A stretch of 64,000 bases of DNA from Escherichia coli 042 (GTDB lineage Bacteria > Pseudomonadota > Gammaproteobacteria > Enterobacterales > Enterobacteriaceae), in assembly GCF_000027125.1 (NCBI RefSeq), contig NC_017626.1. One strand, written 5' to 3'. The translations under genes were made by a program, and so were the position numbers. The notes below the pieces were generated by a model, which worked only from the letters and a program-made list of their open reading frames with translations, searched no databases and was not told the DNA's origin. Shown here in pieces: positions 15,299 to 53,840 of the stretch (its first letter is position 1; every line of letters starts with the position of its first letter).

Positions 15299-15322
15299 TA
15301 CAAATCGTGCACTATATCAAAC

Positions 15323-27124: not shown

Positions 27125-27200
27125 GCCCGGATAGCTCAGTCGGTAGAGCAGGGGATTGAAAATCCCCGTGTCCTTGGTTCGATTCCGAGTCCGGGCACCA
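27125..27200 (+). tRNA. pheV: tRNA-Phe (anticodon GAA)
   Basis: GCCCGGATAGCTCAGTCGGTAGAGCAGGGGATTGAAAATCCCCGTGTCCTTGGTTCGATTCCGAGTCCGGGCACCA; 76 nt, CCA end, GAA anticodon in loop. Confidence 0.95.
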
Positions 27201-28981: not shown

Positions 28982-30481
28982 TTACCTGTGGTCCGGAAGA
29001 ATAAGCGGCTGCGGTTTCAGACTGTCTTCCTGTACATACCTCTCTCCGTTAAAAACCATAATGCGTTCATTATCTTCGTCTGTCAGTGGATTGAATGGCG
29101 GTATATTTTCGGTACGAATACCGGTCAGCCACTGAAAAATACCTGTGAAATGACGGGCACTGATTTTTCTGCTGAGGGACTGATGAGAGGTTATATCACT
29201 GGCGGTAATAATCAGGGGCACGCTGTAGCCTCCCTGCACATGACCATCATGATGAACAGGATTAGCACTGTCGCTGACCGACAGCCCATGGTCAGAAAAG
29301 TAAAGCATGGCGAAATGACGTGAGTGTCGGCGAAGGATACCATCAAGCTGACCAAGAAAGTTATCCAGTTTACTGATGCTGGCAAGATAACAGGCAATTT
29401 TTCGGGAATACTGCTCCAGGTAATTATTCTGCCAGGAGTGAAGCCGATCACACGGGTTCGGATGAGACCCCATCATGTGCAGGAAAATCACCTTCGGAGT
29501 GGATGTATCTGCCAGCGCACGTTCTGTTTCCTGTAACAACAACATGTCATCCGTTTTACGGGAAGCAAAGCTGCCTTTCTTGAGGAAAACAGTATGGTCC
29601 GCATCAGAAGCAATAACAGAGATGCGTGTGTCATGCTCTCCCAGTTTTCCCTGATTGGATATCCACCATGTGCTGTATCCTGCTTTTGCTGCCAGCGCCA
29701 CCACGTTGTTGCCGGAATCAGGGTTCTGCTCATAGTCATAAATCAGTGTCCGGCTCAGGGAAGGCACGGTGCTGGCTGCTGCCGATGTATAACCGTCAAT
29801 AAATAAACCGGGAGCCGTATTCAGCCATGGTGTGGTTGGCTCGGGATAACCATATACCGACATATAATCCCTGCGGACACTCTCACCAGTAACAATAACA
29901 ATCGTGTCATATAATGGTGCTCCCGGCAGGATTTTCCAGCTGTCAGCACCGTGCCGACTCAGTTGTTCATAACGCTGCATTTCACGCAATGTGTCAGTTG
30001 TCCCCACAACTGTTCCTTTAACCATCCGTAACGGCCAGCTGTTTACAGAGCATAATACGAATAACAACAGAGCCATCGCGTTACGTTGACCACGGTGGTG
30101 TGTCCGCCAGAAAATAACCATGAACACCAGAATCGCGGCACTGACCAGAAAATGATAAACAGGAATCATCCCGGTAAACTCCGCAGCCTCATCCGCCGTG
30201 GTCTGCAACAACGCGACAATAAAACTGTTGTTGATTTTTCCGTACGTCATACCGACAGGTGCATACAGTGCACAACAGAACAGAAATAACAGAGCTGTAA
30301 TGGATGTAAGGGTATTTCTGTGTGCAAGAATCAGAAGGAGAAACAGCAGCAACACATTCCCGGTGGCATTCTTCTCAGTGTATCCGCATGCGGCAGTGGT
30401 TATTACACACATGCCCGGGAAGAATAAAAACAATAAAATCCGGGATATATTGTCCGTATAAAACAGCTTTCTGATATTCAT
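28982..30481 (-). CDS. membrane phosphoethanolamine transferase / sulfatase-family protein (EptA/YhbX-like)
   Basis: 499 aa; N-terminal multi-TM region followed by alkaline-phosphatase-superfamily motifs (TGESVRRDY, HMMGSHP, SDHG). Confidence 0.6.
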   Translation of the reverse strand: MNIRKLFYTDNISRILLFLFFPGMCVITTAACGYTEKNATGNVLLLFLLLILAHRNTLTSITALLFLFCCALYAPVGMTYGKINNSFIVALLQTTADEAAEFTGMIPVYHFLVSAAILVFMVIFWRTHHRGQRNAMALLLFVLCSVNSWPLRMVKGTVVGTTDTLREMQRYEQLSRHGADSWKILPGAPLYDTIVIVTGESVRRDYMSVYGYPEPTTPWLNTAPGLFIDGYTSAAASTVPSLSRTLIYDYEQNPDSGNNVVALAAKAGYSTWWISNQGKLGEHDTRISVIASDADHTVFLKKGSFASRKTDDMLLLQETERALADTSTPKVIFLHMMGSHPNPCDRLHSWQNNYLEQYSRKIACYLASISKLDNFLGQLDGILRRHSRHFAMLYFSDHGLSVSDSANPVHHDGHVQGGYSVPLIITASDITSHQSLSRKISARHFTGIFQWLTGIRTENIPPFNPLTDEDNERIMVFNGERYVQEDSLKPQPLILPDHR

Positions 30482-30632
30482 CGGAGTATATCGACAACAT
30501 TATTGTGAAGAGAATAAAAATCAGAAGTCTCCTGTGAAACAGATAACAGACAACCCTGCAGTATAATTACTGCAGGGAGTCTTCGTTTAATTACAGAAGA
30601 TGGGTAATTATTATCTTTCAGGAGCAGTTTTG

Positions 30633-31373
30633 TCAGAAGTTATAAGTCACACCAAGCATGATGTCATGACTTTTAACATCAACTTCTGATTTATATTTAT
30701 CGCCCCACTCGTCCTTGTAACTCACACTGCTGTCACCTGCATCAAGATAGCGATAGCTGAGGTCCAGAGCGATATCCGGGGTTACGTCATAGCGGACACC
30801 CGCGCCAAAGCTCCATGCGAAGTTGTCAGCAGAGCCTGAACGTGACAACGATTCGCGACCACTGCTTCCGTACCCATAATCCCAGGTACTGATACCGGTT
30901 GTTTTCTGGTGAATTCTGGCGTAGCCAATCCCTGCAGATACCCATGGTGTGAATGCACTGTCATTCCGGAAGTCATAGTACGCATTCAGCATCAGTGTGT
31001 TGACTGACACCTCATTCTTCAGGTCATCACGCCAGTAACCGCCTGACCAGCTGTCTTTATCTACGTTATACTTCGAATCAGCTTTTCCACGAGCGTAAAA
31101 CTCCAGTTCCGTACGAACCGGAATACTGAACTGCGGGTAAAAATCATAACCGGCCGCGATACCGCCACTGAATACCGTATCATGGCCATCACCGCCTTTA
31201 TATTTTGATGTTTCCTCTCCATCACCCGACAGGAAACGCTGGTCTGCAAGTGACATAACAGAAGCACCTGCTTTACCGGTCACATAAAAGCCTGTTTTGC
31301 TCTCATCAGCCAGAGCCTGGGTCGAAAACATGCCTGCCATGGCAAGCGCTGAAACCGCAATAACCTTATTCAT
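30633..31373 (-). CDS. outer-membrane beta-barrel protein (possibly opacity/Tia-Hek-like adhesin family)
   Basis: Signal peptide MNKVIAVSALAMAGMFSTQALA, alternating aromatic/hydrophilic strands, C-terminal ...LGVTYNF beta-barrel signature; subfamily uncertain. Confidence 0.55.
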   Translation of the reverse strand: MNKVIAVSALAMAGMFSTQALADESKTGFYVTGKAGASVMSLADQRFLSGDGEETSKYKGGDGHDTVFSGGIAAGYDFYPQFSIPVRTELEFYARGKADSKYNVDKDSWSGGYWRDDLKNEVSVNTLMLNAYYDFRNDSAFTPWVSAGIGYARIHQKTTGISTWDYGYGSSGRESLSRSGSADNFAWSFGAGVRYDVTPDIALDLSYRYLDAGDSSVSYKDEWGDKYKSEVDVKSHDIMLGVTYNF

Positions 31374-31597
31374 TTCAATCATCTCCGCTATCACTTTCCC
31401 CGAACGATAAATGGGGTTGCTCATTCTAAAACCATGCAAAAGATAGGGTAAAAGGAATGTTTTCGATCGAATCGATCGATAAAATCGATCGTACCCGATA
31501 AAGTTTTCTTATCGTACCCATAAAAATGGTAAGGGCTGGTTTAAGAGGTAATCGCAGCGGCATGGAAGTATTAAGACCAAAACAGCACGAGATAAAG

Positions 31598-32010: not shown

Positions 32011-34320
32011 ATGGAGTTATGGATATTTATAGTAGCTATTTATTTGATTTATATTCTTTTTTTCAAAAAGAAGAAAACTAAGTCCGCGGGCTCTTATACT
32101 TCCGCTCCTGTGAAAGCACCACCTAAAGAATGGCTTGCTAACAACAAAAAAAATCAGTCTGTAATGCAAAACGAGGACAGCGAAGATGACAATCTGGCTA
32201 CGTTTACACTAAGTGGCGGGCGGAATGTCGAATACAGCATAACAGCCACTCAACGCCAGAATTTCTCAAAAACTACCGGTGCTTTGGCTCGTTGGATTTT
32301 TCCGGGAGAGATGATCACAGTCAGTGGGATAGAGGTTACCGGCGGTCACTTCTATCTTGGGCAGCGTATGAAACCTGCCGGGCATAACTCAGGCGGTTAT
32401 TATGATGGCAATAACGAGGCATCGCTAGTTGACGACACGCTTAAAATATACCCCACACCTTACATTTACGAAGATAGTTCATTAGGGTATTGGCCCAGTT
32501 TTTCCTCACTTTCACCTGAAGCTCGTGGTGCGTACCTGAGTTGGCTTGCCAGCGACAGATGCGACACTTCCTGCCCAATTGGTTACGTTTTCATTTATCT
32601 GTATGGTCTGGAAAGAAGGGCGCTTGTTGACAGCAGGGACAACAATATATCCGACGATGAGTTCTATTCTCTTTTCAAAGAGATCTGCCGTCTCAGATCG
32701 GTTTTCAATGAAAACCGATCTTTCCGGAATTACTCATCCCAGTTACTTGAAGCGATGTCCATTCTTCGTCCGAACGAAAATCTTGCAGCAGCTCTCAACG
32801 ATGATTCGGAGTTCAGCAATAGCATGCAGTTCAGGTTAATCCTGGCAAAGACTGTTGATACAGGAGCCCCGGTTCCAGCGGATCTGGCTCTGACGTGGGT
32901 GACAAACCATGCTGAATACTCATTACGAACCCCCGCCCGCCGCTGTGCGAAAGAATTTGCTGCACTATTTAAACGGCGTTACACCCTTAAATACGGTGAA
33001 GGGATGGTAGTGAAGCCGAATAAAGCGCGTCTGCGTTTAGATTACACGCCTGCAAGTCCCAGTTTGCGAGGTATTCGGCTTCCTGTTCCCGACTTGCCTG
33101 ATCCAGGTGCATTGAAAGGCCCTGTTCAGAAGCTTATGGCCATTGCCGATATATGCACAGGTGAACTGGATGCTTACAGTCGTTACCTTGGTAGAAAAGG
33201 TACTTCAGCAAATGATACCGCTGCAATTTTGTTGCTGCCTTCAGAAATCGTTAACGAAAGCGCAGAAAAAATATTAAGTACATTCAAACACTGGGCTGAT
33301 GACGCAATCCGCAGTAAGGGTGGGATAGTTTCAGTTGCTGACTACTGGTCACATATGAATGCCACCTGTCCGGCGAAGATCAATAAAAAAGAGGCCGACT
33401 TAATGCAAGCCTTTGCACAGAAAATGGGATACTGTCTGGCTCCTGACCCCTATCACCACCACGTAAAGGCAGATGTCGATGGTGTACTTGTTTTATTCCC
33501 TGCTGGTGAAAGAGGACGTTTCTCACCTTCTCCTGAATTTATCACAGCTGTATTGACGCTCCGATTAGGTTCGGTAGTCGCCTTGATTGACAATTCTCTC
33601 GATCAAGCCGAACAGAAAGTGCTTGAGAATGCCATCAACAACAATGCCAGCTTCAGCGATGATGAAAAGCGCTCTCTGCACGCATATTTAACGTGGCAGC
33701 TTCATACTCCGGCGAATATGACGGGAATGAAAAGCCGGATTGAATTACTCGGTGCAGCGGAAAAATCAGCTGTGGGTAAGGTTATCGTTAGTGTCGCTTG
33801 CTCTGACGGCAGAATTACGCCTGCCGAAATCAAACAGCTTGAGAAGATTTATACAAGCCTGGGACTGGATCCCTCATCCGTATCAAGCAATATCCATCAG
33901 CATTCCGCAACTGAAACTGCTCTCGTTTCATCTGTACCAGCTAATCAGTCGACGGCAGGGTTTACGCTGGATGCCAACGTACTTGCCCGCCACGAATCTG
34001 CCACTGATGATGTTCGTAAATTACTGAACTCAATTTTCACTGAAGAAGAACCAGAACAACCAGAAAGCGCTCCAGCCTCATTAACCGGGGAAGGGGGACT
34101 TGACTCCGCTCATAGCCAACTTTATCGCAGGTTGCTGGAGAAAGAACAATGGTCCAGAAAAGAGGCGACAGAGTTGTGTAGTAACTGGAACCTGATGCTC
34201 GGCGGTGCGCTTGAGGTGATTAACGATTGGTCCTATGCGGTGGTTGATGCACCAGTGCTGGAAGATGCTGATGATCACATTTGGATTGACCTGGAAATAG
34301 CCAAAGAATTAGAGGGTTAG
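32011..34320 (+). CDS. TerB-domain membrane-anchored protein (Shango SngA-like)
   Basis: 769 aa; N-terminal TM helix (MELWIFIVAIYLIYILFF), region with GYVFIYLYGLERR and a later ...VSVACSDGRITPAEIKQLEKIYTSLGLD block that I recognise as TerB-N / TerB-like; first gene of a tightly packed three-gene operon. Confidence 0.6.
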   Translation: MELWIFIVAIYLIYILFFKKKKTKSAGSYTSAPVKAPPKEWLANNKKNQSVMQNEDSEDDNLATFTLSGGRNVEYSITATQRQNFSKTTGALARWIFPGEMITVSGIEVTGGHFYLGQRMKPAGHNSGGYYDGNNEASLVDDTLKIYPTPYIYEDSSLGYWPSFSSLSPEARGAYLSWLASDRCDTSCPIGYVFIYLYGLERRALVDSRDNNISDDEFYSLFKEICRLRSVFNENRSFRNYSSQLLEAMSILRPNENLAAALNDDSEFSNSMQFRLILAKTVDTGAPVPADLALTWVTNHAEYSLRTPARRCAKEFAALFKRRYTLKYGEGMVVKPNKARLRLDYTPASPSLRGIRLPVPDLPDPGALKGPVQKLMAIADICTGELDAYSRYLGRKGTSANDTAAILLLPSEIVNESAEKILSTFKHWADDAIRSKGGIVSVADYWSHMNATCPAKINKKEADLMQAFAQKMGYCLAPDPYHHHVKADVDGVLVLFPAGERGRFSPSPEFITAVLTLRLGSVVALIDNSLDQAEQKVLENAINNNASFSDDEKRSLHAYLTWQLHTPANMTGMKSRIELLGAAEKSAVGKVIVSVACSDGRITPAEIKQLEKIYTSLGLDPSSVSSNIHQHSATETALVSSVPANQSTAGFTLDANVLARHESATDDVRKLLNSIFTEEEPEQPESAPASLTGEGGLDSAHSQLYRRLLEKEQWSRKEATELCSNWNLMLGGALEVINDWSYAVVDAPVLEDADDHIWIDLEIAKELEG

Positions 34321-34323
34321 TGA

Positions 34324-35640
34324 ATGTCTGTAACACGTATAAGAGTGAAAGAGCGCGACGCTATCATTCAGTCACTTAAGTCGGGAGTAACGCCAAGAAT
34401 AGGTATTCAGCATATCCAGGTTGGCCGCGTGAATGAGATAACCGCCCTCCATCAGGATATTGAACGGATTGCTGATGGCGGGGCAAGCTTCAGACTTATC
34501 ATTGGTGAGTACGGTTCCGGGAAAACATTCTTTTTAAGTGTTGTACGGTCTATTGCGTTAGAGAAGAAGCTGGTCACGGTCAGTGCAGACCTTTCTCCCG
34601 ACAGACGTATCCACTCATCGGGAGGTCAGGCTCGTAATCTCTACTCAGAGCTTATGAAAAATATGTCCACCAGAAACAAACCAGATGGCAATGCATTACT
34701 TAGCGTTGTGGAAAGGTTTGTTACTGAGGCAAGGAAGGAAGCTGATGCGAACGGCTCCCTGGTCTCATCCGTTATTCATAAACGCCTTGCTGCTTTGTCA
34801 GATATGGTGGGAGGATATGACTTTGCGAAGGTCATTGACGCATTCTGGCGCGGGCATGAGCAGGATAACGAAACCTTAAAATCCAATGCTATTCGCTGGT
34901 TGCGGGGCGAGTACACCACAAAAACTGATGCCCGTAATGATCTTGACGTCCGAACGATTATCTCAGACGCCTCGTTCTATGATTCTTTGAAGTTGATGAG
35001 CCTTTTTGTCCGTCAGGCAGGCTATGCCGGACTTTTAGTTAGCCTCGACGAGATGGTGAACCTCTTCAAGTTGAATAATACGCAAGCGAGAACGGCCAAC
35101 TACGAACAAATTTTGCGGATTCTGAATGACTGCCTGCAAGGCTCCGCCGAAAATATTGGTTTTATCCTCGGGGGGACGCCAGAATTTCTTTTCGATCCAC
35201 GTAAGGGGCTCTACAGCTATGAAGCGCTCCAGTCGCGTCTGGCAGAAAACCGATTCGCACAGAAAGCTGGCGTGATTGACTACTCGTCCCCCACGCTGCA
35301 TCTTGCCAGCCTCACTCCTGAGGAACTGTATATTTTACTGAAAAACCTTCGTCATGTTTATGCTGGTGGAGATCCCGTAAATTATCTGGTGCCAGATGAT
35401 GCTCTGACCGGGTTTCTGCATCACTGCAGCAAAACCATCGGAGATGCTTACTTTCGAACTCCCCGCAATACCATAAAAGGTTTTCTGGATATGCTGGCTG
35501 TGCTGGAACAAAACAGAACGATGAACTGGCAACCCCTCATTGAGGGGGTGGCGATTGAAGAAGACAAGCTCAGCGATATGGATGATGCCATTGTGGAGGA
35601 AAGTGATGACGATGATGGCCTGGCGAATTTCAGATTATGA
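34324..35640 (+). CDS. P-loop ATPase (Shango SngB-like)
   Basis: 438 aa; Walker A GEYGSGKTF, Walker B LLVSLDEM; starts 4 nt after upstream stop and overlaps downstream start. Confidence 0.65.
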   Translation: MSVTRIRVKERDAIIQSLKSGVTPRIGIQHIQVGRVNEITALHQDIERIADGGASFRLIIGEYGSGKTFFLSVVRSIALEKKLVTVSADLSPDRRIHSSGGQARNLYSELMKNMSTRNKPDGNALLSVVERFVTEARKEADANGSLVSSVIHKRLAALSDMVGGYDFAKVIDAFWRGHEQDNETLKSNAIRWLRGEYTTKTDARNDLDVRTIISDASFYDSLKLMSLFVRQAGYAGLLVSLDEMVNLFKLNNTQARTANYEQILRILNDCLQGSAENIGFILGGTPEFLFDPRKGLYSYEALQSRLAENRFAQKAGVIDYSSPTLHLASLTPEELYILLKNLRHVYAGGDPVNYLVPDDALTGFLHHCSKTIGDAYFRTPRNTIKGFLDMLAVLEQNRTMNWQPLIEGVAIEEDKLSDMDDAIVEESDDDDGLANFRL

Positions 35641-37835
35641 GTAGTGCCTACAATAGTCTTGATCCCCGTGTCCGTAAGTGGGTTTATAAGCAGGGCTGGT
35701 CATCCTTAAGGCCCTTGCAGGAAAGCTCTATTCCGGCAATTTTAGCCCGTGATCGTGATGTACTAATTAGTGCAGGTACAGCTGCGGGTAAAACAGAGGC
35801 TTTCTTTCTTCCTGCCTGTTCAGCGATTGCAGATCTCACTGGTGGATTTGGCATTATCTATATCAGTCCATTGAAGGCATTAATTAACGATCAACACCGT
35901 CGTCTTGAGAGTCTTGGTGAAGCCCTGGAAATGCAAGTGACGCCCTGGCACGGGGATGTACCACAAAGCAAAAAGAAGAAAGCACGGACAACCCCTTCTG
36001 GCATCTTACTTATCACACCTGAATCACTTGAGTCTTTGCTCATAAACTCATTGGGTTGGCTCAAACAGGCGTTTTCTTCTGTGGCATACATTGTTATTGA
36101 TGAGTTCCATGCTTTTATTGGCTCAGAGCGTGGTATACAGCTGCTTTCTCTGCTTAACAGAATTGACCATGTGCTGGGACGCCAGTTGAATCCAGTTCCC
36201 CGTGTCGCGTTGAGTGCCACACTGGGAGAGCTGGAAAAAGTACCAGAACTATTGCGCCCGGATAAGAGATTACCTTGTGAAACGGTAACAGACAGTAATA
36301 GCAAAGCCACAATACAGGTTCAGGTTAAAGGTTATCTTGAGCGGGTGCCCGAAAAAGGAAAAGAGCTCCAGAGCTCTGCTGAACAGCTCGTCTGCGCGGA
36401 TATTTTCAGGCTCTGCCGTGGCGATTCCCACCTAGTCTTTGCTAACAGTCGAAAGCGTACTGAAAGCATAGCGGCAACACTGAGCGACATGTGTGAAGCA
36501 AATGTCGTTCCTAATGAATTCTTTCCTCATCATGGTTCCCTTGCAAGGGAGTTGCGTGAGGCGCTTGAAGCCCGACTGCAGAAAGGGAATTTGCCCACAA
36601 CCGCTGTTTGTACAATGACTCTGGAGCTGGGTATTGATATTGGTAAGGTGCAGTCTGTCATACAAGTGACACCTCCGCATTCTGTTTCCAGTCTGCGTCA
36701 ACGCATGGGACGTTCAGGGCGGCGCGATTCCCCATCGGTGCTGAGAATGTTAATTACTGAACCTGAACTTACCGCAACCAGCAGCATTGTGGATCATTTA
36801 CGGCTGCAGTTGGTTCAGGCGATGGCAATGATCAGGTTGATGATCTCTAAGCGCTGGTTCGAGCCTGCAGATATCCGGCAGAAACATTACTCCACACTAC
36901 TACACCAGATCTTGGCTATTACTGCGCAATGGGGAGGTGTTCGTGCCGATCAGCTCTGGTCACAACTTTGCCAGACAGGTCCGTTCCGGAATGTGGATAT
37001 AAATGACTTCAAAAGTCTGCTTAAACATATGGGGACATGTGGCCTGCTCACTCAACTAACCAGCGGTGAAATAGTTGTCGGGGCTGAGGGGGAGAAACTG
37101 ACTAATCACTACACGTTTTATACCGTATTCAATACACCTGAGGAGTTTCGCATTGTAACGGGAAACCGAACTCTTGGCACAGTGCCTGTAGACTCCCCAC
37201 TTTTGCCGGAGCAGCACATCATCTTCGGCGGACGGCGCTGGAAAGTGACAGAGATCGAGGTTGAAAAAAAGGTTATCTATGTTGAGACGACTAAAGGCGG
37301 TCAGCCGCCACTATTCAGTGGTAGCGGGATGTCTGTTCATGATGTTGTTCGCCAGGAAATGCTCACTATCTACAGGGAAAATGATTACCGTATCGCGGTA
37401 GGCAACAAGAGAGTCGATTATGCTGATGCCGCAGCCAGAAGCCTCTTCGCGGAAGGAAGTGACAACTTCCAACGCTACAATCTACAAAATGACTGTTTTA
37501 TTGCCAGTGGTCAGAACTGCTACGTGATCCCGTGGATGGGGGATAAAATTGTCAATACAATTACGTCCCTGCTTATACGTTGTGGCTTTAAAGCCAGTTC
37601 ATTTGCAGGTGTGATAGAGGTAGAGGACTCAGGCGTTGCCTCTGTCCAGCGTGCACTTAAGAAAATGCTATTGTCGGGGCTACCTTCAGAGTTTGAGCTT
37701 GCTGCAGTTGTTCCCGACAAGTATCTGGATAAATATGACGAGTATTTACCAGAGACTTTGCTTGCTAAAGGGTATGGGGCACAGGCGTATGATATAGAAG
37801 GAACGTGCATCTGGCTGCAGAAACACCTTCAGTAG
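35637..37835 (+). CDS. DEAD/DEAH-box (Lhr-like SF2) helicase (Shango SngC-like)
   Basis: 732 aa; motif I AGTAAGKTEAF, motif II VIDEFH, motif III SAT, motif VI MGRSGRR; ATGA start/stop overlap with upstream ATPase. Confidence 0.7.
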   Translation: MSSAYNSLDPRVRKWVYKQGWSSLRPLQESSIPAILARDRDVLISAGTAAGKTEAFFLPACSAIADLTGGFGIIYISPLKALINDQHRRLESLGEALEMQVTPWHGDVPQSKKKKARTTPSGILLITPESLESLLINSLGWLKQAFSSVAYIVIDEFHAFIGSERGIQLLSLLNRIDHVLGRQLNPVPRVALSATLGELEKVPELLRPDKRLPCETVTDSNSKATIQVQVKGYLERVPEKGKELQSSAEQLVCADIFRLCRGDSHLVFANSRKRTESIAATLSDMCEANVVPNEFFPHHGSLARELREALEARLQKGNLPTTAVCTMTLELGIDIGKVQSVIQVTPPHSVSSLRQRMGRSGRRDSPSVLRMLITEPELTATSSIVDHLRLQLVQAMAMIRLMISKRWFEPADIRQKHYSTLLHQILAITAQWGGVRADQLWSQLCQTGPFRNVDINDFKSLLKHMGTCGLLTQLTSGEIVVGAEGEKLTNHYTFYTVFNTPEEFRIVTGNRTLGTVPVDSPLLPEQHIIFGGRRWKVTEIEVEKKVIYVETTKGGQPPLFSGSGMSVHDVVRQEMLTIYRENDYRIAVGNKRVDYADAAARSLFAEGSDNFQRYNLQNDCFIASGQNCYVIPWMGDKIVNTITSLLIRCGFKASSFAGVIEVEDSGVASVQRALKKMLLSGLPSEFELAAVVPDKYLDKYDEYLPETLLAKGYGAQAYDIEGTCIWLQKHLQ

Positions 37836-37851
37836 ACTGGATATGTAGTCA

Positions 37852-37884
37852 GGGTATAAATAAGTATTTATACCCTTATTTTTT
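37852..37884. terminator. hairpin terminator after helicase gene
   Basis: gggtataaata-agt-atttataccc followed by ttatttttt. Confidence 0.5.
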
Positions 37885-38270
37885 ACTTACCTGTGGACTT
37901 ACTTGGCTTTAATCCCGGAGTATTGCCAGGAGTATCTTTATTATCGCGTCGGCGTTGATCCGGTTTTCCTGTTGACTTAGCAATTGGTTTTGGACCTGGT
38001 TTTAGACCCATGATAGTTATCCTTCGAGATGTAAGAGGAATGCCCTCAACATTGGTATATTCTATACTGAGAAATTTTTCAATGGGAATGTTCAACGGCC
38101 GAATGATTAACTCGATATTGTGAGCAATGTCTTTTTTTGGCACAGAGCGAACCGTTAGATTGCGCGTATTTTTATGGAAGGAGATCATCCAATAACGGTT
38201 ATTCACCGATCTCCTTTATGGTAATACGAACCTGTTTTTTTAATATATAGAAAAATTACTCCGACATGTT

Positions 38271-38915
38271 TTATCTTTTTGAAATCAGGACATTTACCAA
38301 CTCACTTAAAACTCTCTTTTGTTCTTCATCCTGAAGATATTGAATCCGGAATTTAATCTCTTCTGCAACCCGCCTTGTATCGGACTCATTAAGTATTTTT
38401 GTTATTCGCTGTCTCTGATGTTCAGGCTGGTCTTCCATATTTCGTAAAACCAGATGAAATAATATATCATAAAGTGCGCAATGCCATGAATAACCATCAT
38501 TGGTTAGAATAAGCTCCCAAACCCGCTCCTGTTCGGCAATAAGCTGCAGAACAAAGGATTCAACCTGTTCTGATTGTCCGGGGACAACCCGGTATAGCGG
38601 CGCAATCACAGCAAAAAACAGTTCATTTAGCCAGGATTCCGCCTCTTTCTCGCTCCTGAAAGATGGACAGTTCTGTATTCTTCGTTCGTATTCACGGGTA
38701 ACCTGCTCCGGAATATCCTCCGGCGGTGTCAGCCACTTATTCCTGAGCAATATACTGGTTGACGGATGGCAGCAGGCTATTTCAGCAATAATTTCACGTA
38801 ATGCCTCCGGGCTGAATTTCTTCAGCTGATTGTAGTGCTCCCGGGTAAAACCATGATCATCGCATAAAAGTTGCCATGTCATTGATATACTGTTTGCCAT
38901 TCCTTTCTTCATCAT
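38271..38915 (-). CDS. hypothetical protein (fourth gene of IbrAB-like operon)
   Basis: 214-aa ORF co-oriented, 20 nt downstream of the 102-aa ORF; no recognisable motif. Confidence 0.4.
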   Translation of the reverse strand: MMKKGMANSISMTWQLLCDDHGFTREHYNQLKKFSPEALREIIAEIACCHPSTSILLRNKWLTPPEDIPEQVTREYERRIQNCPSFRSEKEAESWLNELFFAVIAPLYRVVPGQSEQVESFVLQLIAEQERVWELILTNDGYSWHCALYDILFHLVLRNMEDQPEHQRQRITKILNESDTRRVAEEIKFRIQYLQDEEQKRVLSELVNVLISKR

Positions 38916-38935
38916 TAATACCTGTTACCTGAATA

Positions 38936-39244
38936 TCAACAGACCGGTGTACCTTTTCTGAATACCTCCCCGGACGGACTGGCAATCCCCATTCGCCTCA
39001 GCGTGGCATCTGCAGCTTTCGCCACTTCGCTGATATCCAGCTTTTCAGGTAGCGGCGGGGACGATATCTGCGCCAGGCAATAATTCCTGCGCAACAACAA
39101 CCACTCCCGTTGTGCTTCTGTACATTCAACATTTCCCATAACAAAAAGCCAGCGGGCGGAAGCTCTGCGCCAGCAACCCGCAGCCTCCAGCTTCTGTGCA
39201 ACCATGTCTTCCACGACTTCCGGGGTACTCTTTTTCCTGCTCAA
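38936..39244 (-). CDS. hypothetical protein (third gene of IbrAB-like operon)
   Basis: 102-aa ORF 39 nt downstream of ParB-like gene, same strand. Confidence 0.35.
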   Translation of the reverse strand: MSRKKSTPEVVEDMVAQKLEAAGCWRRASARWLFVMGNVECTEAQREWLLLRRNYCLAQISSPPLPEKLDISEVAKAADATLRRMGIASPSGEVFRKGTPVC

Positions 39245-39283
39245 AACATTAACTCACTGAAATAATATACATATATGACGGTC

Positions 39284-39922
39284 TCAGCGAACCGTCCATG
39301 CCGGACTGAAATCCTCTTCCAGAAACAGCTCCGTCAGCCCGCTAATCTGTTTCAACCTGAGAACTTCATCCTGGTCCATACCCAGCTCCGTACCAATACG
39401 TTCATCCGTCCAGCCCAGCCGCGACAGGTCCCTGACAATATCAGACATTGAAGTTATCTGGTGCTTCCCCCTGGCCCGGTTATGTCTAATGGTTGCAGCA
39501 ATACGTGAGGCCTGTCCCTTTCTTTCCGGATTAATACAGGTCACTGGCAACCAGCCCTTCAGGCGTTTTCCCGTACCTGCTTCCCTGCCCAGTAATTGAC
39601 GATGAAAACCATCCACGACCAGATAATGCTCCTTCTCTTCCGAGACAACCACAGGCTGCGTGAACCCATCCTGCTCCAGTGAATGTTTCAGCAGTTTCTT
39701 CTCACCCGGCGCCATGACATTGGGGTTATAATCGTTGGCCACCACCTCATCTGCTTTCACCCACAGCACACAGTCCACAGGCTCCTGTGCAAATGGACTG
39801 ACCTCATGAAGCACCCTGCGCAGATGATTCAGGGCCTGTATGGCCTCTTCTTCTGGTCGTTCCTGGCTGAAGTACTGACGAATCATGTTGCTCAGTATCT
39901 CCGGTGTCACAGAATCCCCCAT
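39284..39922 (-). CDS. ibrB: ParB/Srx-like nuclease-domain protein (IbrB-like)
   Basis: 212 aa; ParB N-terminal-type motif region VVVDGFHRQLLGREAG...IRHNRARGKHQ; start overlaps upstream gene by 16 nt. Confidence 0.6.
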   Translation of the reverse strand: MGDSVTPEILSNMIRQYFSQERPEEEAIQALNHLRRVLHEVSPFAQEPVDCVLWVKADEVVANDYNPNVMAPGEKKLLKHSLEQDGFTQPVVVSEEKEHYLVVDGFHRQLLGREAGTGKRLKGWLPVTCINPERKGQASRIAATIRHNRARGKHQITSMSDIVRDLSRLGWTDERIGTELGMDQDEVLRLKQISGLTELFLEEDFSPAWTVR

Positions 39923-41139
39923 TCCTTCCTCCTTTCTTTCATACGCTGCAGATAACGTTCATAGTGCCGGGGTTTGTTCGGACTGAAGGAGAGGGTACGG
40001 CACCAGAAATCATTCTTTATGAGAGTCTTACAGATACGTCGCCAGGACGGAATATCCCGGCTCCCCAAGTCATTCTCCTGTTCATCCGGGATGTCATCCG
40101 GGAAGCCCCGCGTCTGATACCAGCGCAGATAGACAGCTATCTTGTTGCGGTAATGTTCTGCCGTTCTTTCCGGCATCACATCCAGCAGAAACATCGCATA
40201 GCTGCGCCAGGTATGATGGGCTGGTTTTGATATGCGCTTACGCAGGGCAAAATAAGCCCCGCTTTCATTGGCATAAAGTGCCCCGCTGGCAGCCCCTGAC
40301 ACCCGCTCACACATCCTGGCCCAGGTTTCCGGCTCCAGAACATGGTAAAGCCACAGTCCCTTACGTTGTTCAGGACCAAAAGGTTCACAGACACGCATGT
40401 TGCGTAACGGTACGCCGGCACGGTACATCAGGTCATACAGGGGATTGTAGATGGCACGGGTTCTGGTGTGATATATCCAGATATCACGAGTTTTCCAGTC
40501 ATACAGCGGATACATGGTGTAGTAAAACCCTTCAGGCGATGCCGTGGTCCAGGGCTTATCATCGGCGTATCTCAGTTTGCGCTGGGATACCAGTCCCATG
40601 AACCGGTTAAGGGACTCATCCGCACGGACACCGGTCAGTACTGCCACACCACATTTATTGTCTGCAAACCAGGAAGAAAATGCCGGAACAAATTCTTCAA
40701 ACGTCATGGCATACCGGTAAAAGGGAAAATACGCCATATCTGTAATGGCCCCCTCCGGTGGCTGGCGAACCCACTTCACACCAGACTCCCAGCATATCCA
40801 CTCCGGCTGAAACTGAGAAACACCGTTTACCGTGGTCAGGGGAAGTGCCACCCAGTAAAAGGTTTCCGTCACATCATGGTACATTTCCCGCATCTTCTGA
40901 ATATGTTCAATGGTGCACTGGTACTGAGCCTCCCAGTCAATGAACAGTACAGAGAAACGACGTTTTTTCCTGCGGGCCACATCAGCCAAAAGATGGAAAA
41001 GCACGGTGGAATCTTTACCACCGGAAAAAGAGAGACAAACTGATGGAAATGTTTCAAAAATCCACTCAATACGAGCAATTGCTGCACGCAGAACATTCTC
41101 TCCAGTAAGGACTTTCTCCGTTAAAAAATTATCATTCAT
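39907..41139 (-). CDS. ibrA: PAPS-reductase-like (PP-loop ATP pyrophosphatase) protein with C-terminal extension (IbrA-like)
   Basis: 410 aa; PP-loop SFSGGKDSTVLFHL near N-terminus, long C-terminal domain; gene pair architecture matches IbrA/IbrB (YbdN/YbdM-like) as I recall it. Confidence 0.65.
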   Translation of the reverse strand: MNDNFLTEKVLTGENVLRAAIARIEWIFETFPSVCLSFSGGKDSTVLFHLLADVARRKKRRFSVLFIDWEAQYQCTIEHIQKMREMYHDVTETFYWVALPLTTVNGVSQFQPEWICWESGVKWVRQPPEGAITDMAYFPFYRYAMTFEEFVPAFSSWFADNKCGVAVLTGVRADESLNRFMGLVSQRKLRYADDKPWTTASPEGFYYTMYPLYDWKTRDIWIYHTRTRAIYNPLYDLMYRAGVPLRNMRVCEPFGPEQRKGLWLYHVLEPETWARMCERVSGAASGALYANESGAYFALRKRISKPAHHTWRSYAMFLLDVMPERTAEHYRNKIAVYLRWYQTRGFPDDIPDEQENDLGSRDIPSWRRICKTLIKNDFWCRTLSFSPNKPRHYERYLQRMKERRKEWGIL

Positions 41140-41279
41140 TTATTTTTACTTTATGCAAAAGAAACCTGTTTATGCTTTCAACATATAGCAACAAACATTA
41201 AATGACGTTTAATTAGCCACTACTAAAATTGCTTACTTTCATCCTGATGAACATATAAAACATATTACAAACATATTTA

Positions 41280-41987
41280 TCAATAAAGAATCTTTATTGA
41301 TGATACTGGCACTGTAACAATCCCATTGAGAGAACGATTTATAACCACCCACTCATGTGGTTCAACCAACCAGGAGTTTACATGTTTTGAATCAATAAAA
41401 TCATGGCAATATAATATATCTGAAGCAGGTATATCCAACTCCAGTTTAACACGTCCGTGATATTCATCCGCATCATTAAAAGAATTCAATATATCCATCT
41501 CAAAAGAAATCACATCCTCCCCTCTTATCTCTGCTGTTTCTTTTAACTCAGCAATCGTATCTGCATACCTGCCATTAAGTTTCCTGCCTAACTGGATAGT
41601 TGTGATTTTCTTTTCGTTGCAGCATCGCTGAGTATGTTCATATATAGCCATCACTTCCTGGCAAATACAATCAACTTCTATATCACTCAAAGAATTATAT
41701 ATGTCCATAACTTTTCTCTCATAATGCAAAAAAAGATTAAATATACGATAATGAGAGAGCAAATCAGAATTTGTTACTTTCGTTAAGAATAAAGTTAATA
41801 AAACATAACCTACCTGTTTACTACCATTAAACCCAATAAAATCACTTCTCACATCTCCTTTCAATCTACCAGTTCCGATACAACGAGCTAACAATTCACT
41901 CCTGACATTATATTTACCATTCATATTCACCATACTATTCGAAACAACAGACGAACATCCAAAAGCGCTTAAACACTCCACAAACAA
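41280..41987 (-). CDS. hypothetical protein (AT-rich orphan)
   Basis: 235-aa ORF in a visibly A+T-rich segment; no recognisable motif. Confidence 0.4.
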   Translation of the reverse strand: MFVECLSAFGCSSVVSNSMVNMNGKYNVRSELLARCIGTGRLKGDVRSDFIGFNGSKQVGYVLLTLFLTKVTNSDLLSHYRIFNLFLHYERKVMDIYNSLSDIEVDCICQEVMAIYEHTQRCCNEKKITTIQLGRKLNGRYADTIAELKETAEIRGEDVISFEMDILNSFNDADEYHGRVKLELDIPASDILYCHDFIDSKHVNSWLVEPHEWVVINRSLNGIVTVPVSSIKILY

Positions 41988-42040
41988 ACTATCTCACCGA
42001 ATAAATTGCAACACTCCCCTTACCCCACATCCTAAAGGCT

Positions 42041-42964
42041 TTATATAAAACAGTAAAAGTGAATCAGCTTAACAAATGCATCTTTCATTTGTTTTTGCTG
42101 CTGCTCGCTTCCATTCTGGTTGCGGACTTCACCATAGTGACACAACTGTTCTTCTGCCAGGATATGCCGGTTAAAAGCCTGCATGATGCCAGACACCTCC
42201 GTTTTCAGCTCACTGACCGTCATGTATTTTCCCCGCTGTTCATCCGGACGGTTCAGGCGCTCAGCCAACAGCTGTAAGCGGGTCATGCCTTCGTTCCAGC
42301 CAGTCATCGCCTCTTCCGGGAGCGCACGACTCCTTGCACTCTTCTGCCAGTTATCCACCATTTCCTGAACACGAGGATTGTCGGGGAAAAGTACCATCAG
42401 TTGCTGCAGCAATTGCACACTGCGTTGCAGGTTGTATGCCGGGGGGAATTCTGTCAGTCGCGTTATCTGCTGACCGGAAAGGGTTATCCACTCTGACGCA
42501 TGATTTAACAGTGTTCTGCTGAGCTGCATCATCTGGTCTGCTGAAAGCACATCCGGTGAGGGTGTCAGCAGCGCCCTGAGTTGCTGCTCCGCCGGTGATG
42601 GCTGTGTCAGAAACTGCCATCCCGGAATGGCCACGCAGACCGCCAGCAATGCCGTACAGACACCTGTAACAAACGTTTTCAGAAACGTGAGCGGGGATTT
42701 TTGAAGGAAGAGTGTGGGCTCTGTTTTTGTTTCAGAAACAACATACACCAGACGGGAGTGCGGCAGGGTCTGATGTTCCTGCACATCCGGAGCTTCAAGC
42801 CTGAGTGCCTGCGCCAGTAGCGTTACCGGAGACGATACTTCCCCCTGCACAGGCTGGTTCTCCAGGCGGGTGATATATCCCTTCACCATGGCTTCCGGTA
42901 AAGCCACTTTACTGCTCTGTTTAAGTTCGTGCCAAGCCTGCGTATTTTCATGGAAGGAGATCAC
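42041..42964 (-). CDS. hypothetical membrane protein (possible C-terminal portion of an ImpA/VasL-like protein)
   Basis: 307 aa with central TM helix (LTFLKTFVTGVCTALLAVCVAIPGW); start overlaps the upstream ImpA-N-like ORF by 17 nt in another frame. Confidence 0.4.
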   Translation of the reverse strand: MISFHENTQAWHELKQSSKVALPEAMVKGYITRLENQPVQGEVSSPVTLLAQALRLEAPDVQEHQTLPHSRLVYVVSETKTEPTLFLQKSPLTFLKTFVTGVCTALLAVCVAIPGWQFLTQPSPAEQQLRALLTPSPDVLSADQMMQLSRTLLNHASEWITLSGQQITRLTEFPPAYNLQRSVQLLQQLMVLFPDNPRVQEMVDNWQKSARSRALPEEAMTGWNEGMTRLQLLAERLNRPDEQRGKYMTVSELKTEVSGIMQAFNRHILAEEQLCHYGEVRNQNGSEQQQKQMKDAFVKLIHFYCFI

Positions 42965-43388
42965 TCAGTGTCTTCAGGAATGTTTCGGTCTGATACAGCA
43001 GGGGCAGGTTGTCACGGTTATCCGGAGGCATGGCCCGGAGCGTTTTTTGCAGACGGTTGAACAGACCGGTAATAATTTCCAGCCGGGAGTGTGTATTCAG
43101 CGGCCACATCACTGACCAGTGATGCCGGGTCAGCGCAGCAATCAGAGCCAGCCCTTCATTCAGACCACTTAACCCTGTTGTATGCATCCGGGCAATGGTG
43201 TACCAGGATGCCGTCTGTAATTCCACGCCATTGTGTTCATACAGACGCAGGCAGAGCGTTTCCACGTAACGCCAGTCCACATCAGGGCGTGCCGGGTGGG
43301 TCAGTTTGCTGATTTCATCGCGCAGGGCAGCATAATCCGGTAATGACCGGGGGTCACCACCGGTTTTCAGTTTCACTTCAGAAGTCAT
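42948..43388 (-). CDS. ImpA-N-domain-like protein (TssA/VasL N-terminal-like)
   Basis: 146 aa; GGDPRSLPDYAALRDEISKL...DVDWRYVETLCLRLY...ASWYTIA...GLSGLNEGLALIAAL...W pattern resembles the ImpA N-terminal domain of T6SS TssA/VasL proteins (from memory). Confidence 0.4.
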   Translation of the reverse strand: MTSEVKLKTGGDPRSLPDYAALRDEISKLTHPARPDVDWRYVETLCLRLYEHNGVELQTASWYTIARMHTTGLSGLNEGLALIAALTRHHWSVMWPLNTHSRLEIITGLFNRLQKTLRAMPPDNRDNLPLLYQTETFLKTLSDLLP

Positions 43389-43781
43389 CGGCAGATTCAG
43401 TGTTTAGGTATTAAACCATTGTTAATTATAGGGAGAGAGTCAGTGCGATACCGTTACCCAGGAAAGGTATTCCACTGCGCAGATGATTGCCGGTGTCACA
43501 TCCCACCGCCGTTTCAGAACCGGTAACAGCTCATTAAGGTTTCTGATATAACGCTCAGTGAAAACCGGACTGATTACAGGTAATGGTGATATGACAGGTA
43601 TCGTTGCCAATATACACGGCTTCCAGAGGTATGAATCTTACATTCCAGTACCAGGAGTACGGCGAGTGGTTCAGATGAAAAAGACGCATCTGAATATCGT
43701 TAAATAACGGGTTCATGGCGAATTAAATAAACCTGATAATAACAGTATGGGGAAAGTCCGGAATAAAGAAATGGTCCGGTA

Positions 43782-45569
<1,788 letters not shown>

Positions 45570-45670
45570 AAACGCACCTTAATCTGCGAACAAAAAAAAG
45601 AATCATCACCGACACCCACGACGTTATATCGTGGATGTCGCTTTATTCAGAAATAAAAAAACTGAAGTGG

Positions 45671-47217: not shown

Positions 47218-47877
47218 TCAGAGATGGTATGCCGGTACTTTGCGGGTTGTTCCTGTCAGGTTATCGTGCACCTCCACGGTCGTGGTCACCACCGGCATTC
47301 CGGCCTTTCTCAGCCTCAGAACATCAGCCGCAATACGCTGACTGCCAAACCAGAACAGGCCGTCCAGTGCAGTCACCAGTAAACCCGCCTCCAGTGCATA
47401 CTTCAGCCGTTCACGGGGCGCTTTCACTTCCCGGGCAACCTGCTGATATGGCAATGATGTGTTTTCATTCCCAACCACGCGACGAATACGGTGAGACAGA
47501 TGATACCGGAATGTATCCGGCACACCAGAAAGGCTGGCCTTCAGGCTGTACACGCAACCAAACCGTTTATCGTTAAACACCACATTTTTCTGGCTGATGC
47601 CCCATTCTTCACGCAGCGCGGCAATCAGTTGTGGTGTCCGGGTAAGCAGCAAGCGAAAAGGCAGTTCAAAACTGGTGACGTAATCCACATTCAGCAGTGC
47701 AATACGCAGCCGTTCTTCTGGCCCGGCCTCTGTCTGCCGGCACTCCTCCAGAACATCCTGCCACTGCTGGCGAAGACGGGAAGACTCATTCAGCTCAGTA
47801 AAACTGTATTTATCCGCCAGATAGTCAATTCGTGTACGCATACTGAAGAGCATTCCGTATAAAGATTCAGCTGGCAA
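47218..47877 (-). CDS. hypothetical protein
   Basis: 219-aa ORF, co-oriented with neighbours; no motif recognised. Confidence 0.4.
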   Translation of the reverse strand: MPAESLYGMLFSMRTRIDYLADKYSFTELNESSRLRQQWQDVLEECRQTEAGPEERLRIALLNVDYVTSFELPFRLLLTRTPQLIAALREEWGISQKNVVFNDKRFGCVYSLKASLSGVPDTFRYHLSHRIRRVVGNENTSLPYQQVAREVKAPRERLKYALEAGLLVTALDGLFWFGSQRIAADVLRLRKAGMPVVTTTVEVHDNLTGTTRKVPAYHL

Positions 47878-50002: not shown

Positions 50003-50224
50003 CTAGGATGATAATCCTATACCTGAGGGAGACATGGAGGGACTAACCGTCGCAGTCGTTGCCCATGAATGTACTTTATCACCTATATAAGCCCCTGCAA
50101 TAGAACCAAATCCCGGGCTAATAAACGTACCTGCAAGTGAACCAATAGCAATTAATTCTGCCTGCCCGTCATTCCCGTCACCTCCAGATATTTGTTTTAT
50201 TTCATTTTCAGATAGTTTTCTCAT
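50003..50224 (-). CDS. mcmA: microcin M precursor (class IIb siderophore-microcin)
   Basis: MRKLSENEIKQISGG double-glycine leader and Ser-rich C-terminus ...MSPSGIGLSS; recognised as microcin M precursor; ATG at 50224 with aaggtg RBS; the track ORF extends in-frame upstream from a TTG. Confidence 0.8.
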   Translation of the reverse strand: MRKLSENEIKQISGGDGNDGQAELIAIGSLAGTFISPGFGSIAGAYIGDKVHSWATTATVSPSMSPSGIGLSS

Positions 50225-50285
50225 TTCAACACCTTCGCTATAAAATTTGTGAAGAAGTAAAAATTCACGTTTAACCACAACGATA

Positions 50286-50441
50286 AAAATGTAACTACAA
50301 GTGATAAAAAAACATATATAGATTAAAAAAATTATATCTATAGTAATAACTAAGATATAATGACACCGGAATATAAAAGAACAGATAATTGATAACAAAA
50401 GCAATCACTGTTATTTTTATATCCTTCTTAACCTCCCCCAT
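50286..50441 (-). CDS. candidate microcin M immunity peptide (51 aa, hydrophobic)
   Basis: Hand-translated ORF MGEVKKDIKITVIAFVINYLFFYIPVSLYLSYYYRYNFFNLYMFFYHL between mchF and mcmA with ggag RBS; below the track cutoff; the known immunity protein length was not verified. Confidence 0.35.
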
Positions 50442-50476
50442 CGACAAAACTCCTTACAAAGTTACACCAGTGGATT

Positions 50477-52573: not shown

Positions 52574-53840
52574 TGAGCGGTCCTGTTGCACTGTGTTTCA
52601 TGTCATAGAAAGGAGAAAGCATCCACTGGTAAATACGCCTTTTTTCCAGAAATAGTGTACTTTCGGCTTTCATTCCATTTTCCAGAGGGAGGTATTTTTC
52701 GTCATATCTGATAATCTGCTTTTCAGGCATCGCAATGACTTTATACCAGGGAACAGAGGCGCCCGGCGTATTCTGTGGTGCACCCTTATAGGTCAACATT
52801 TCCTGTGTTGACGCAGGAGTCCTGGATATAGTTTTAACCGTAGCAGAGAACTGCCCAAATTTTTCTGCCGGAAAGGCTTCATAACGAATATTCACTTTGT
52901 CACCAGCCGAAATATAAGGAACAGCATCATTTGGGACCCAGAGAATAAGATAATAGTTTTCAATGTTCTCAGGAATAACCTGCAGAAGGCTGTCTCCGGT
53001 ATTGACCATTTGCCCGACAGTGACACTCAGGGAGTCAACTTTCCCGTCAGTCAACGCCCGGATAATAATTTCGCCCTCCACATCAGTGTTAACCAGTTCT
53101 TTCTGTAACTCGTACCGTTGCAGTTCCATCTGGTAGATACGGTTATCAAAATCTGCAGCCTGAGTCTGAATCTGACTCTCCAGAGTGGTTATCTGCAGGG
53201 CATTCTGTTCGTTCTGTCCGCTCAGGCTGAGAAGATTGTTTTGTTGCTGATAATATAATGCCACCTGGTTAGTTAACTGATCTTTATTAATCAGCCCTTT
53301 TGCCTGATAGTTTCTGTAATTCTCCATATTGTTTTTCATTATTTTTATCCCTTCCTCTGCACGCTGTATAATATCTGATGAGCGACGAAACGCATCTGTG
53401 TATTGCAGACGTTGTTTTTCCAGGGTATCTAACGTTATTTTTTTACTTTCTTCCAGACGGGAAATAATGTTGTCCACACGAACCAGCTGATTTTCTATAT
53501 CCCGCCGATGATTATCAGTGACAATACCACTACGTGTACTTTTACTGATGTCAATCAGATAAACAGGATCCCCTTTTTTTATCAACTGCCCTTCATGAAC
53601 AAATTGCCTGACAACAAATCCCTGTACACCTGAATATATATTGACAGCTCTTGGCCAGGTTGTGACCTCACCACTGACATTAACACGGCGGCTATAGGTA
53701 CCAACAATAATGAACATCAGAAATGCCGTAATAAACACAATGCTTCCCAGCATGATTAACCATAGTGGTATTCCGGGAAGTAATATTGCCCGTCCCTGCC
53801 ACTTCATTTTTCTGTTTTCTAAAGCATCCTGACGAAACAA
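52566..53840 (-). CDS. mchE: microcin secretion membrane fusion protein (CvaA/HlyD family)
   Basis: 424 aa; [40 protein letters not shown] matches CvaA/MchE N-terminus; overlaps mchF start. Confidence 0.85.

Follow-up and report, generated by a model that had tools for sequence, protein, structure and literature searches.

Do closely packed genes on one strand of a genomic island form a single system, and might such a system modify DNA or defend the cell? The question is raised by a block of four minus-strand genes at positions 38271 to 41139 of a 64,000-nucleotide (nt) stretch of Escherichia coli 042 (contig NC_017626.1), called here the window. A sequence-only reading of this DNA had described the block as an IbrA/IbrB-like pair, consisting of a phosphoadenosine phosphosulfate (PAPS)-reductase-like protein and a ParB-like protein, joined by two further genes without recognizable motifs. 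The conserved unit is the ibrA-ibrB pair, and sequence comparison indicates that the block around it is a mosaic rather than a four-gene system. The explanation that we favor, and to which we give about even chances, is that the locus represents a mobile-element regulatory cassette (ibrA-ibrB plus pchD, a gene of the perC family) lying beside genes of the island backbone. A DNA-modification role for IbrAB is unsupported.

The identity of the pair is clear. IbrA and IbrB from strain 042 share 91% and 88% protein identity with their counterparts in phage PhiR5_2, which are annotated as "co-activator of prophage gene expression IbrA/IbrB" and are adjoined by antirepressor genes, and 94% and 95% identity with ibrA (ECs_1386) and "ybdM" (ECs_1387) of E. 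coli O157:H7 Sakai, as the name given to the pair had implied. In SpLE1, a phage-like element of Sakai, these two genes are followed by pchD (ECs_1388; 97% protein identity) and the hypothetical gene ECs_1389 (88%), in the order and with the spacing found here, and the nucleotide match, at 92% identity, covers exactly window positions 38231 to 41180. The block is already annotated in Sakai, and the locus is not new. What differs is the setting: in Sakai, the block lies in the serX-linked SpLE1, near a decayed Mokosh-like helicase gene and insertion sequence (IS) elements, whereas here it occupies a tRNA-Phe island between a Shango operon and the remnant of a type VI secretion system (T6SS), with an additional 107-amino-acid (aa) open reading frame (ORF) and an upstream ORF of low guanine-plus-cytosine (GC) content. 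The Sakai helicase gene is the pseudogene ECs_1383 (L030:1763-4443), located upstream of ibrA and annotated as "UvrD/REP helicase-like"; it matches the C-terminal half of the Mokosh MkoA and MkoC models (149 and 138 bits) and is a decayed defense gene.

Among complete E. coli genomes (n = 5,426), the whole block is present at a coverage of at least 80% in 961, the perC gene in 1097, and the 214-aa gene in 1061. Island-type ibrAB, at a nucleotide identity of at least 80%, accounts for about 2,100 E. coli records, and the core paralogue ybdN-ybdM is found in 5417 of the 5,426 genomes. Outside these E. coli islands, it is the pair alone that recurs. In E. coli Nissle 1917, PhiR5_2, the K-12 ybdNM locus, and Hafnia plasmids, ibrAB stands without perC or the 214-aa gene; a Serratia plasmid carries a solitary copy with a degraded ibrA; and Klebsiella hypervirulence plasmids carry ibrAB alone, between the fec and iro (salmochelin) loci. 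The copy on K. pneumoniae pOCUhvKP1 (L028:7001-8862) shows 91% protein identity, and "ibrA" and "parB" of pK2044 were listed among hypermucoviscosity-associated genes in a genomic study (PMC9846069).

Beyond these cases, 1,850 cluster representatives are relatives of IbrA, and 310 have E values below 1e-30. The pair was found on 869 plasmids, of which 323 are Klebsiella plasmids, and in 224 phage records from phages of many phyla. At every complete locus that we examined, the IbrA gene is followed by an overlapping ParB_N gene; the loci range in identity from 55% to 30% and include Streptococcus and Lactobacillus phages and metagenomic prophages. The overlap in strain 042 is 16 nt, as the sequence-only reading had it, and its conservation suggests that the two proteins are produced jointly and work as one complex. 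On phage genomes and prophage-like contigs from Firmicutes, a gene for an SNF2-family helicase (389 to 493 aa; split in phage PY1) precedes and overlaps IbrA-IbrB, and in three of four such loci this module sits just after the lysis cassette.

The boundary between the cassette and the rest of the block is marked by both composition and comparative context. The GC content is 0.50 to 0.55 for ibrA, ibrB, and perC, with that of perC/pchD (0.55) close to that of ibrAB, versus 0.43 for the 214-aa gene and 0.41 for the 107-aa ORF. In blastn searches, diverged contigs lacking the ibr genes match window positions 42090 to 45616 and resume, beyond a short intergenic stretch, at the 214-aa gene (about 38300 to 38914), a map that makes segment 38915 to 42090 an indel; this segment contains perC, ibrB, ibrA, and a 235-aa ORF. 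Diverged homologues of the 214-aa protein (54 to 57% identity) are encoded directly after an intact tssA-like gene that closes a T6SS cluster, without ibr or perC genes, and for this reason the 214-aa gene probably belongs to the island backbone, outside the Ibr module. Losses are seen as well. E. coli O104:H4 has lost ibrA and most of ibrB and retains perC along with the 214-aa and 107-aa ORFs; another deletion variant, L014, lacks ibrA together with the 5' portion of ibrB. A search for direct or inverted repeats flanking 38915 to 42090 as insertion scars gave only short, chance-level matches.

The two genes downstream of the pair, which had been taken for unrecognized members of one system, thus have separate identities: one encodes PchD, and the other is an Escherichia-only orphan beside the T6SS remnant. 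The 102-aa protein, far from being motif-free, comprises a full-length PerC domain (PF06069, E 6e-36, model positions 2 to 89 of 90) and shares 97% identity with the pchD (ECs_1388) region of Sakai. This match, at the same position in the block, identifies it as a predicted PerC-family regulator orthologous to PchD. It resembles the PerC and Pch proteins of enteropathogenic and enterohemorrhagic E. coli (EPEC and EHEC) in that a full-length PerC domain makes up a small protein of about 90 aa, and RefSeq homologues start at the ATG at position 39205, which yields 89 aa. It differs from PchA, PchB, and PchC in that PchD, a group 2 Pch, has little effect on the enterocyte effacement locus (LEE), and its function has been called elusive (PMC6265319). 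Only some Enterobacteriaceae have a perC gene after ibrAB, and it was seen there in three contexts: islands of the present type together with O157; plasmid pDEC9B-1, where its product shows 69% aa identity and the genes lie beside a fae fimbrial operon; and Salmonella salamae, in which perC is a frameshifted remnant. Virulence-type neighbors of ibrAB include the fae fimbriae, PapB/AraC/Ail-Lom genes, and the fec-iro loci.

For the 214-aa protein, the earlier impression of a motif-free sequence was confirmed, since we found no match in Pfam, NCBIfam, PADLOC, PHROGs, or phage records. Its homologues form only 40 protein clusters, and all of those with a source-given name are from Escherichia. 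An AlphaFold2 model built on a 13-sequence alignment is an all-alpha bundle of low confidence, with a predicted local distance difference test score of 62, and a Foldseek search of the PDB with it returned nothing below E 1. The 107-aa protein had no family matches either; its ORF is annotated as hypothetical beside the 214-aa gene in E. coli JE86-ST05, M217, and O104:H4 (97 to 100% identical) and is absent from O157.

IbrA was correctly recognized as a 410-aa PP-loop protein resembling PAPS reductases: it contains the PP-loop and the Pfam domains PAPS_reduct and DUF3440 and matches phrog_2302 (E 1e-82). Its fold is of the PAPS-reductase/FAD-synthase type, similar to those of CysH and adenosine phosphosulfate (APS) reductases, and its closest folds work on small molecules (flavin mononucleotide [FMN], sulfate, and APS), not on nucleic acids. 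Over 50 diverse homologues, the PP-loop, D68/E70, a GxRxDES motif, and several tryptophans are invariant, and no cysteine is. C251, the equivalent of the C-terminal catalytic cysteine, is a cysteine in only 50% of the family, and the best-conserved cysteine column (residue 98; family consensus YWxCLP, with cysteine in 44 of 50, or 88%) holds an alanine here (YWVALP). Because no cysteine is conserved, IbrA is unlikely to rely on CysH-type or DndC-type thiol or Fe-S chemistry. Two curated CysH/PAPS-reductase models have cut-offs of 154 and 254 bits, and IbrA reached 35.4 and 34.6 bits, respectively. Given these subthreshold scores and the missing cysteine, the name "phosphoadenosine phosphosulfate reductase" that RefSeq gives the product describes its fold and not what it does, and PAPS reductase as the true function of IbrA was rejected on both grounds. 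A sequence search of solved structures found no close relatives of IbrA or IbrB, and the Pfam domain fusions among longer IbrA homologues (one ABC_tran and marginal AAA_21 and GNAT) were uninformative.

IbrB, named "IbrB-like domain-containing protein" in RefSeq, matches phrog_2159 (E 1e-81). As a single sequence, it matches Pfam ParB_N marginally (E 0.013), and a family profile of 14 members reaches the N-domain structures of ParB, Noc, and Spo0J at E values of 2e-6 to 1e-3, a result that bears out the ParB/Srx-like assignment made earlier for this 212-aa protein. The canonical GERRxRA motif for cytidine triphosphate (CTP) binding is absent from IbrB. Where ParB has this motif (box II), IbrB reads VDGFHRQ, and DG(F/Y)HR is invariant across the family, as are the motifs NxYNPN, VDGxHR, TIRHNRARGxH, and LRLKQxSGL. 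Among the PHROG matches of IbrB is phrog_498, in which ParB_N is joined to a DNA methyltransferase. No parA gene adjoins ibrAB in the window or in the annotated contexts.

Several known systems share features with the pair. One is the IbrA/IbrB pair of E. coli ECOR-9, whose PAPS-reductase-like gene likewise overlaps a ParB-like gene on a mobile island. The ECOR-9 proteins reportedly co-activate the eib genes of prophages (Sandt, Hopper & Hill 2002, J Bacteriol 184:3640, a paper cited in PMC8065619), and the ibr genes of that island are said to lie near antirepressor genes. YbdN and YbdM of K-12 have the same overlapping architecture (58% and 57% protein identity and 63% nucleotide identity) but are core genes beside citR and dsbG, without perC or a mobile-element context. 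The ybdNM operon is repressed by CitR (YbdO), and the adjoining citR is H-NS regulated (PMC9068703); YbdM was described in 2022 as "completely uncharacterized" (PMC8764527). The ParB-family CTP-dependent DNA clamps KorB and BisD, the latter from ICEclc, which regulate transcription, also combine a ParB N-terminal fold with a DNA-binding region, occur on mobile elements, and take part in gene activation (PMC12409273 and PMC12704722). IbrB differs from them in having DGFHRQ for GERRxRA, a marginal Pfam ParB_N match, and an obligate enzyme partner. Finally, DndC/DndB of DNA phosphorothioation, SspD, and BrxP resemble the pair in that a PP-loop PAPS-reductase-like enzyme is encoded with a ParB-superfamily protein; IbrB differs from DndB in its VDGFHR motif and helix-turn-helix (HTH) region and matches no DndB model.

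This last resemblance, to DndC and Ssp systems, had been used to argue for a DNA-modification or defense role. The analogy did not survive comparison with the models. IbrA scores 14.9 bits with DndC TIGR03183 (cut-off, 290.4) and 15 to 18 bits with the PADLOC DndC models; SspD gives no match, and BrxP gives 27 bits over residues 20 to 98 (the PP-loop) only. The PADLOC matches of IbrA are all weak and cover no more than parts of its PAPS-reductase domain, and IbrB, PerC, and the 214-aa and 107-aa proteins yielded 0 matches against PADLOC-DB 2.0 at E ≤ 0.01. None of the ORFs or annotations within ±10 kb is a dndA, dndD, dndE, sspA, sspB, sspC, PglZ, or BrxC gene, dnd and ssp genes are likewise missing around the pair in the other contexts examined, and the BrxD/BrxH-like matches in the window belong to SngB and SngC of Shango, not to BREX. 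Membership in the Dnd, Ssp, or BREX type 4 systems was rejected because of these subthreshold scores and absent partner genes, to which the lack of a conserved cysteine can be added for the DndC/Ssp-type analogy. For the broader suggestion we found no evidence, and full-text searches of the available library returned no published test of IbrAB or YbdNM in defense or DNA modification.

A sulfur-free form of modification is the main rival and deserves separate weighing. IbrA and IbrB could be a nucleic-acid-modifying pair in which IbrB loads on DNA like DpdB or the ParB-methyltransferase fusions and IbrA adenylates a group on DNA, RNA, or a nucleotide, which is then substituted; the mark would serve self-protection or epigenetic control, with activation as a by-product. 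ParB-like partners of this kind have precedents: DpdB helps DpdA in the 7-deazaguanine modification of DNA, and DndC has DndB as its companion. The enzyme-like conservation of both IbrA and IbrB from E. coli to a Lactobacillus phage, the presence of the pair in phages of so many phyla, the overlapping SNF2 helicase-IbrA-IbrB trio of Firmicutes phages and prophages, and the fusion protein phrog_498 among the IbrB matches all point the same way. We nevertheless find this reading doubtful. There is no direct or positive sign of any modification; IbrB matches no PADLOC DpdB or DndB model, and IbrA stays at 15 to 18 bits with DndC; no cysteine desulfurase, transglycosylase, methyltransferase, or restriction-type partner stands beside the pair in the enterobacterial contexts examined; and the nearest folds of IbrA act on FMN, sulfate, and APS. 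Moreover, K-12 has a core copy of the pair, and its DNA is not known to carry an unusual modification. A wider conjecture, which we rate as unlikely, holds that IbrA-IbrB and YbdN-YbdM constitute an unrecognized ATP-dependent, sulfur-independent machine for nucleic-acid modification or remodeling, which phages, plasmids, and islands would have carried into different bacterial phyla, often together with an SNF2 helicase, and that prophage co-activation is its epigenetic read-out.

That the block, or ibrAB itself, is an antiphage or antiplasmid system in a defense island appears improbable. The idea draws on the position of the block between a complete Shango operon and a NERD+UvrD candidate defense helicase, in a variable island bounded by tRNA-Phe and an integrase, and on the decayed Mokosh-like helicase (MkoA, 149 bits) upstream of ibrA in Sakai. 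However, these two loci, here and in Sakai, are the only 2 of about 10 contexts in which defense genes adjoin the pair; the other 8 or so show virulence, plasmid-maintenance, phage, or metabolic neighbors, and no defense genes are found next to it in Nissle, K-12, pDEC9B-1, S. salamae, Hafnia, Serratia, or the Klebsiella plasmids. The family is also common in phage genomes, beside lysis and replication-type genes, the block encodes no nuclease, toxin, or other obvious effector, IbrB, PerC, and the 214-aa protein have no PADLOC model, and no paper with such a phenotype turned up in our literature searches. Least credible of all is the view that IbrA is a genuine PAPS or APS reductase or an auxiliary enzyme of sulfur metabolism. 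The Pfam domain, the RefSeq name, and the likeness of fold to CysH and APS reductases would suit it, but scores of about 35 bits against curated CysH cut-offs of 154 to 254, the absence of an invariant cysteine (with C251 in 50% and alanine in the best cysteine column), the obligate ParB-like partner, and the extra DUF3440 domain would not. In addition, E. coli already has cysH.

Under the explanation that we prefer, a mobile-element regulatory cassette, the core consists of ibrA-ibrB, the two genes that prophages, plasmids, and genomic islands carry as a module. IbrB would act as the DNA-binding subunit, holding DNA through its HTH-like C terminus and a nucleotide through its ParB/Srx domain. 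IbrA, presumably made in stoichiometric amounts with IbrB, may be an enzyme that depends on ATP and transfers AMP or adenylates a substrate, as a member of the PAPS-reductase/FAD-synthase/CysD clade with a helical DUF3440 domain and no catalytic cysteine. As a complex, the two would act jointly on silenced, horizontally acquired genes, and we infer targets of the same kind in strain 042; such an action would agree with the reported activation of eib. PchD, with its ibrAB-like GC content, would add a second small transcription regulator. The identities of the genes, their domain folds, conservation, and distribution are results of the analysis; the complex, its DNA binding, the adenylation, and the targets in this strain belong to the model. 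We further propose that the ibrA-ibrB-perC cassette inserted next to the terminal genes of a T6SS island in decay, that the resident 214-aa and 107-aa genes may thereby have become linked to it, and that the joined block would later have moved as a unit, for example into SpLE1 of O157 (window 38231 to 41180).

Some of our observations weigh against this explanation. A strictly conserved active site would be odd in a plain transcription factor and leaves room for covalent chemistry on DNA, RNA, or protein, and the SNF2 helicase that precedes the pair in Firmicutes phages suggests a DNA transaction rather than promoter-specific activation. Within E. coli, the nearly equal numbers of genomes with the perC gene and the 214-aa gene (1097 versus 1061) indicate tight linkage across the proposed boundary between cassette and backbone. 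PchD has little regulatory effect in O157 (PMC6265319). As for the pair, its one reported role is the eib co-activation mentioned above, a result for ECOR-9.

At the level of gene calls, the four minus-strand ORFs were all found where the sequence-only reading had placed them, and homologues exist for each, which makes them real genes. The gaps are 39 nt between ibrB and perC and 20 nt between perC and the 214-aa gene (Table 1). The minus-strand unit probably does not stop at four genes, as had been assumed: the 107-aa ORF starts 64 nt downstream of the 214-aa gene on the same strand and travels with the block in some genomes. Promoter and terminator scans of the block gave counts no higher than those in shuffled controls, and at this chance level no terminator was predicted inside it, so that co-transcription of its genes is plausible. 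Between the convergent sngC and the 107-aa ORF lies a hairpin that, as a pattern match, is terminator-like on the plus strand, with a T-run, and on the minus strand has an A-run before it and no T-run after it; it is likely the transcript end of the Shango operon and possibly that of the minus-strand unit too.

Table 1. Features of the ibr locus of E. coli 042 and of related helicase-containing loci (window positions, unless a locus handle is given)
Feature	Position	Strand	Description
ibrA	39907-41139	minus	410 aa; contains SFSGGKDSTVLFHL; PP-loop enzyme, PAPS-reductase-like domain + DUF3440
ibrB	39284-39922	minus	212 aa; ParB/Srx-type N-terminal domain + C-terminal HTH-like region
perC-family gene, pchD orthologue (predicted)	38936-39244	minus	102 aa from TTG; 89 aa from ATG at 39205
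Escherichia-only orphan, ECs_1389 homologue	38271-38915	minus	214 aa
Fifth co-directional ORF	37883-38206	minus	107 aa; Lys/Pro/Gly-rich low-complexity C terminus
Hairpin	37851-37876	none	11-bp stem; between convergent sngC and 107-aa ORF
Low-GC orphan ORF	41280-41987	minus	235 aa (214 aa in RefSeq); between tssA-like remnant and ibrA
Split tssA-like gene	42041-43388	minus	ImpA_N fragment 42948-43388 + VasL fragment 42041-42964
Shango operon	32011-37835	plus	SngA 334, SngB 617, SngC 921 bits (PADLOC models)
NERD+UvrD helicase	43782-45569		595 aa; PADLOC candidate model C3a187, 466 bits
SNF2-IbrA-IbrB loci	L019:4772-7816, L021:3086-6273, L005:3856-6795, L006:3842-6798		Firmicutes phages and prophage-like contigs

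The flanks of the block also agree with the earlier description, in that PADLOC models recover both Shango and the NERD-helicase (Table 1). The Shango operon is complete and convergent on the ibr block. On the other side, the 235-aa ORF has a GC content of 0.34 (0.29 at third codon positions), lacks family matches, and turned up in no island but the near-identical L003 (JE86-ST05) and L007; a possible kinship with the 214-aa protein was rejected, as sequence comparison shows none. Next to it, the 146-aa ImpA_N ORF (TssA model TIGR03362, E 6e-23) and the 307-aa VasL ORF overlap by 17 nt in different frames. In the diverged locus L013, an intact 457-aa tssA-like gene combines ImpA_N and VasL and is directly followed by the 214-aa homologue, and the split gene is, by this comparison, part of a decayed, aai-like T6SS cluster. 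In the diverged loci L010 and L013, the NERD+UvrD gene, whose product is named "3'-5' exonuclease" in RefSeq, interrupts a T6SS cluster, with tssE (gp25-like) on one side and the tssA-like gene on the other.

The region is 99% identical to that of E. coli JE86-ST05. The left end of the island is formed by tRNA-Phe (27125 to 27200) followed by a 421-aa tyrosine-recombinase ORF (27398 to 28663), and its contents include Shango, the ibr block, the T6SS remnants, and microcin genes. Just inside the island (28982 to 31439), the integrase is separated from Shango by genes for a phosphoethanolamine transferase (499 aa) and a beta-barrel protein of the outer membrane (268-aa ORF). To the right, a 219-aa minus-strand ORF (47218 to 47877) matches phrog_24243, a phage family of unknown function (E 2e-56), and a microcin H47-type cluster with a colicin V-family bacteriocin gene spans 50003 to 53840 (coordinates matched to the JE86-ST05 annotation); it includes the exporter gene mchF (704-aa ORF, 50477 to 52591) and an HlyD-family gene (52566 to 53840). 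In the core-genome part of the window, the Rfam family naRNA4 (CssrE, a nucleoid-associated noncoding RNA) matches the minus strand at 15229 to 15299 (60.9 bits; gathering threshold, 59.5).

The locus itself is of small import, as an orthologue of the block is annotated in the reference EHEC genome and occurs in about 1,000 of the 5,426 E. coli genomes. Here, tight spacing on one strand did not equal one system, and it was composition and comparative context that split the cassette from the island backbone. The real question concerns the reaction of the ibrAB/YbdNM family, a strongly conserved enzyme paired with a ParB-like protein. The pair is carried on Klebsiella hypervirulence plasmids, on Shigella and E. 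coli plasmids, and by many phages, and nearly every E. coli has a copy. The chemistry of IbrAB, if solved, could show by what means mobile elements activate silenced virulence genes, or it could reveal a new nucleic-acid modification.

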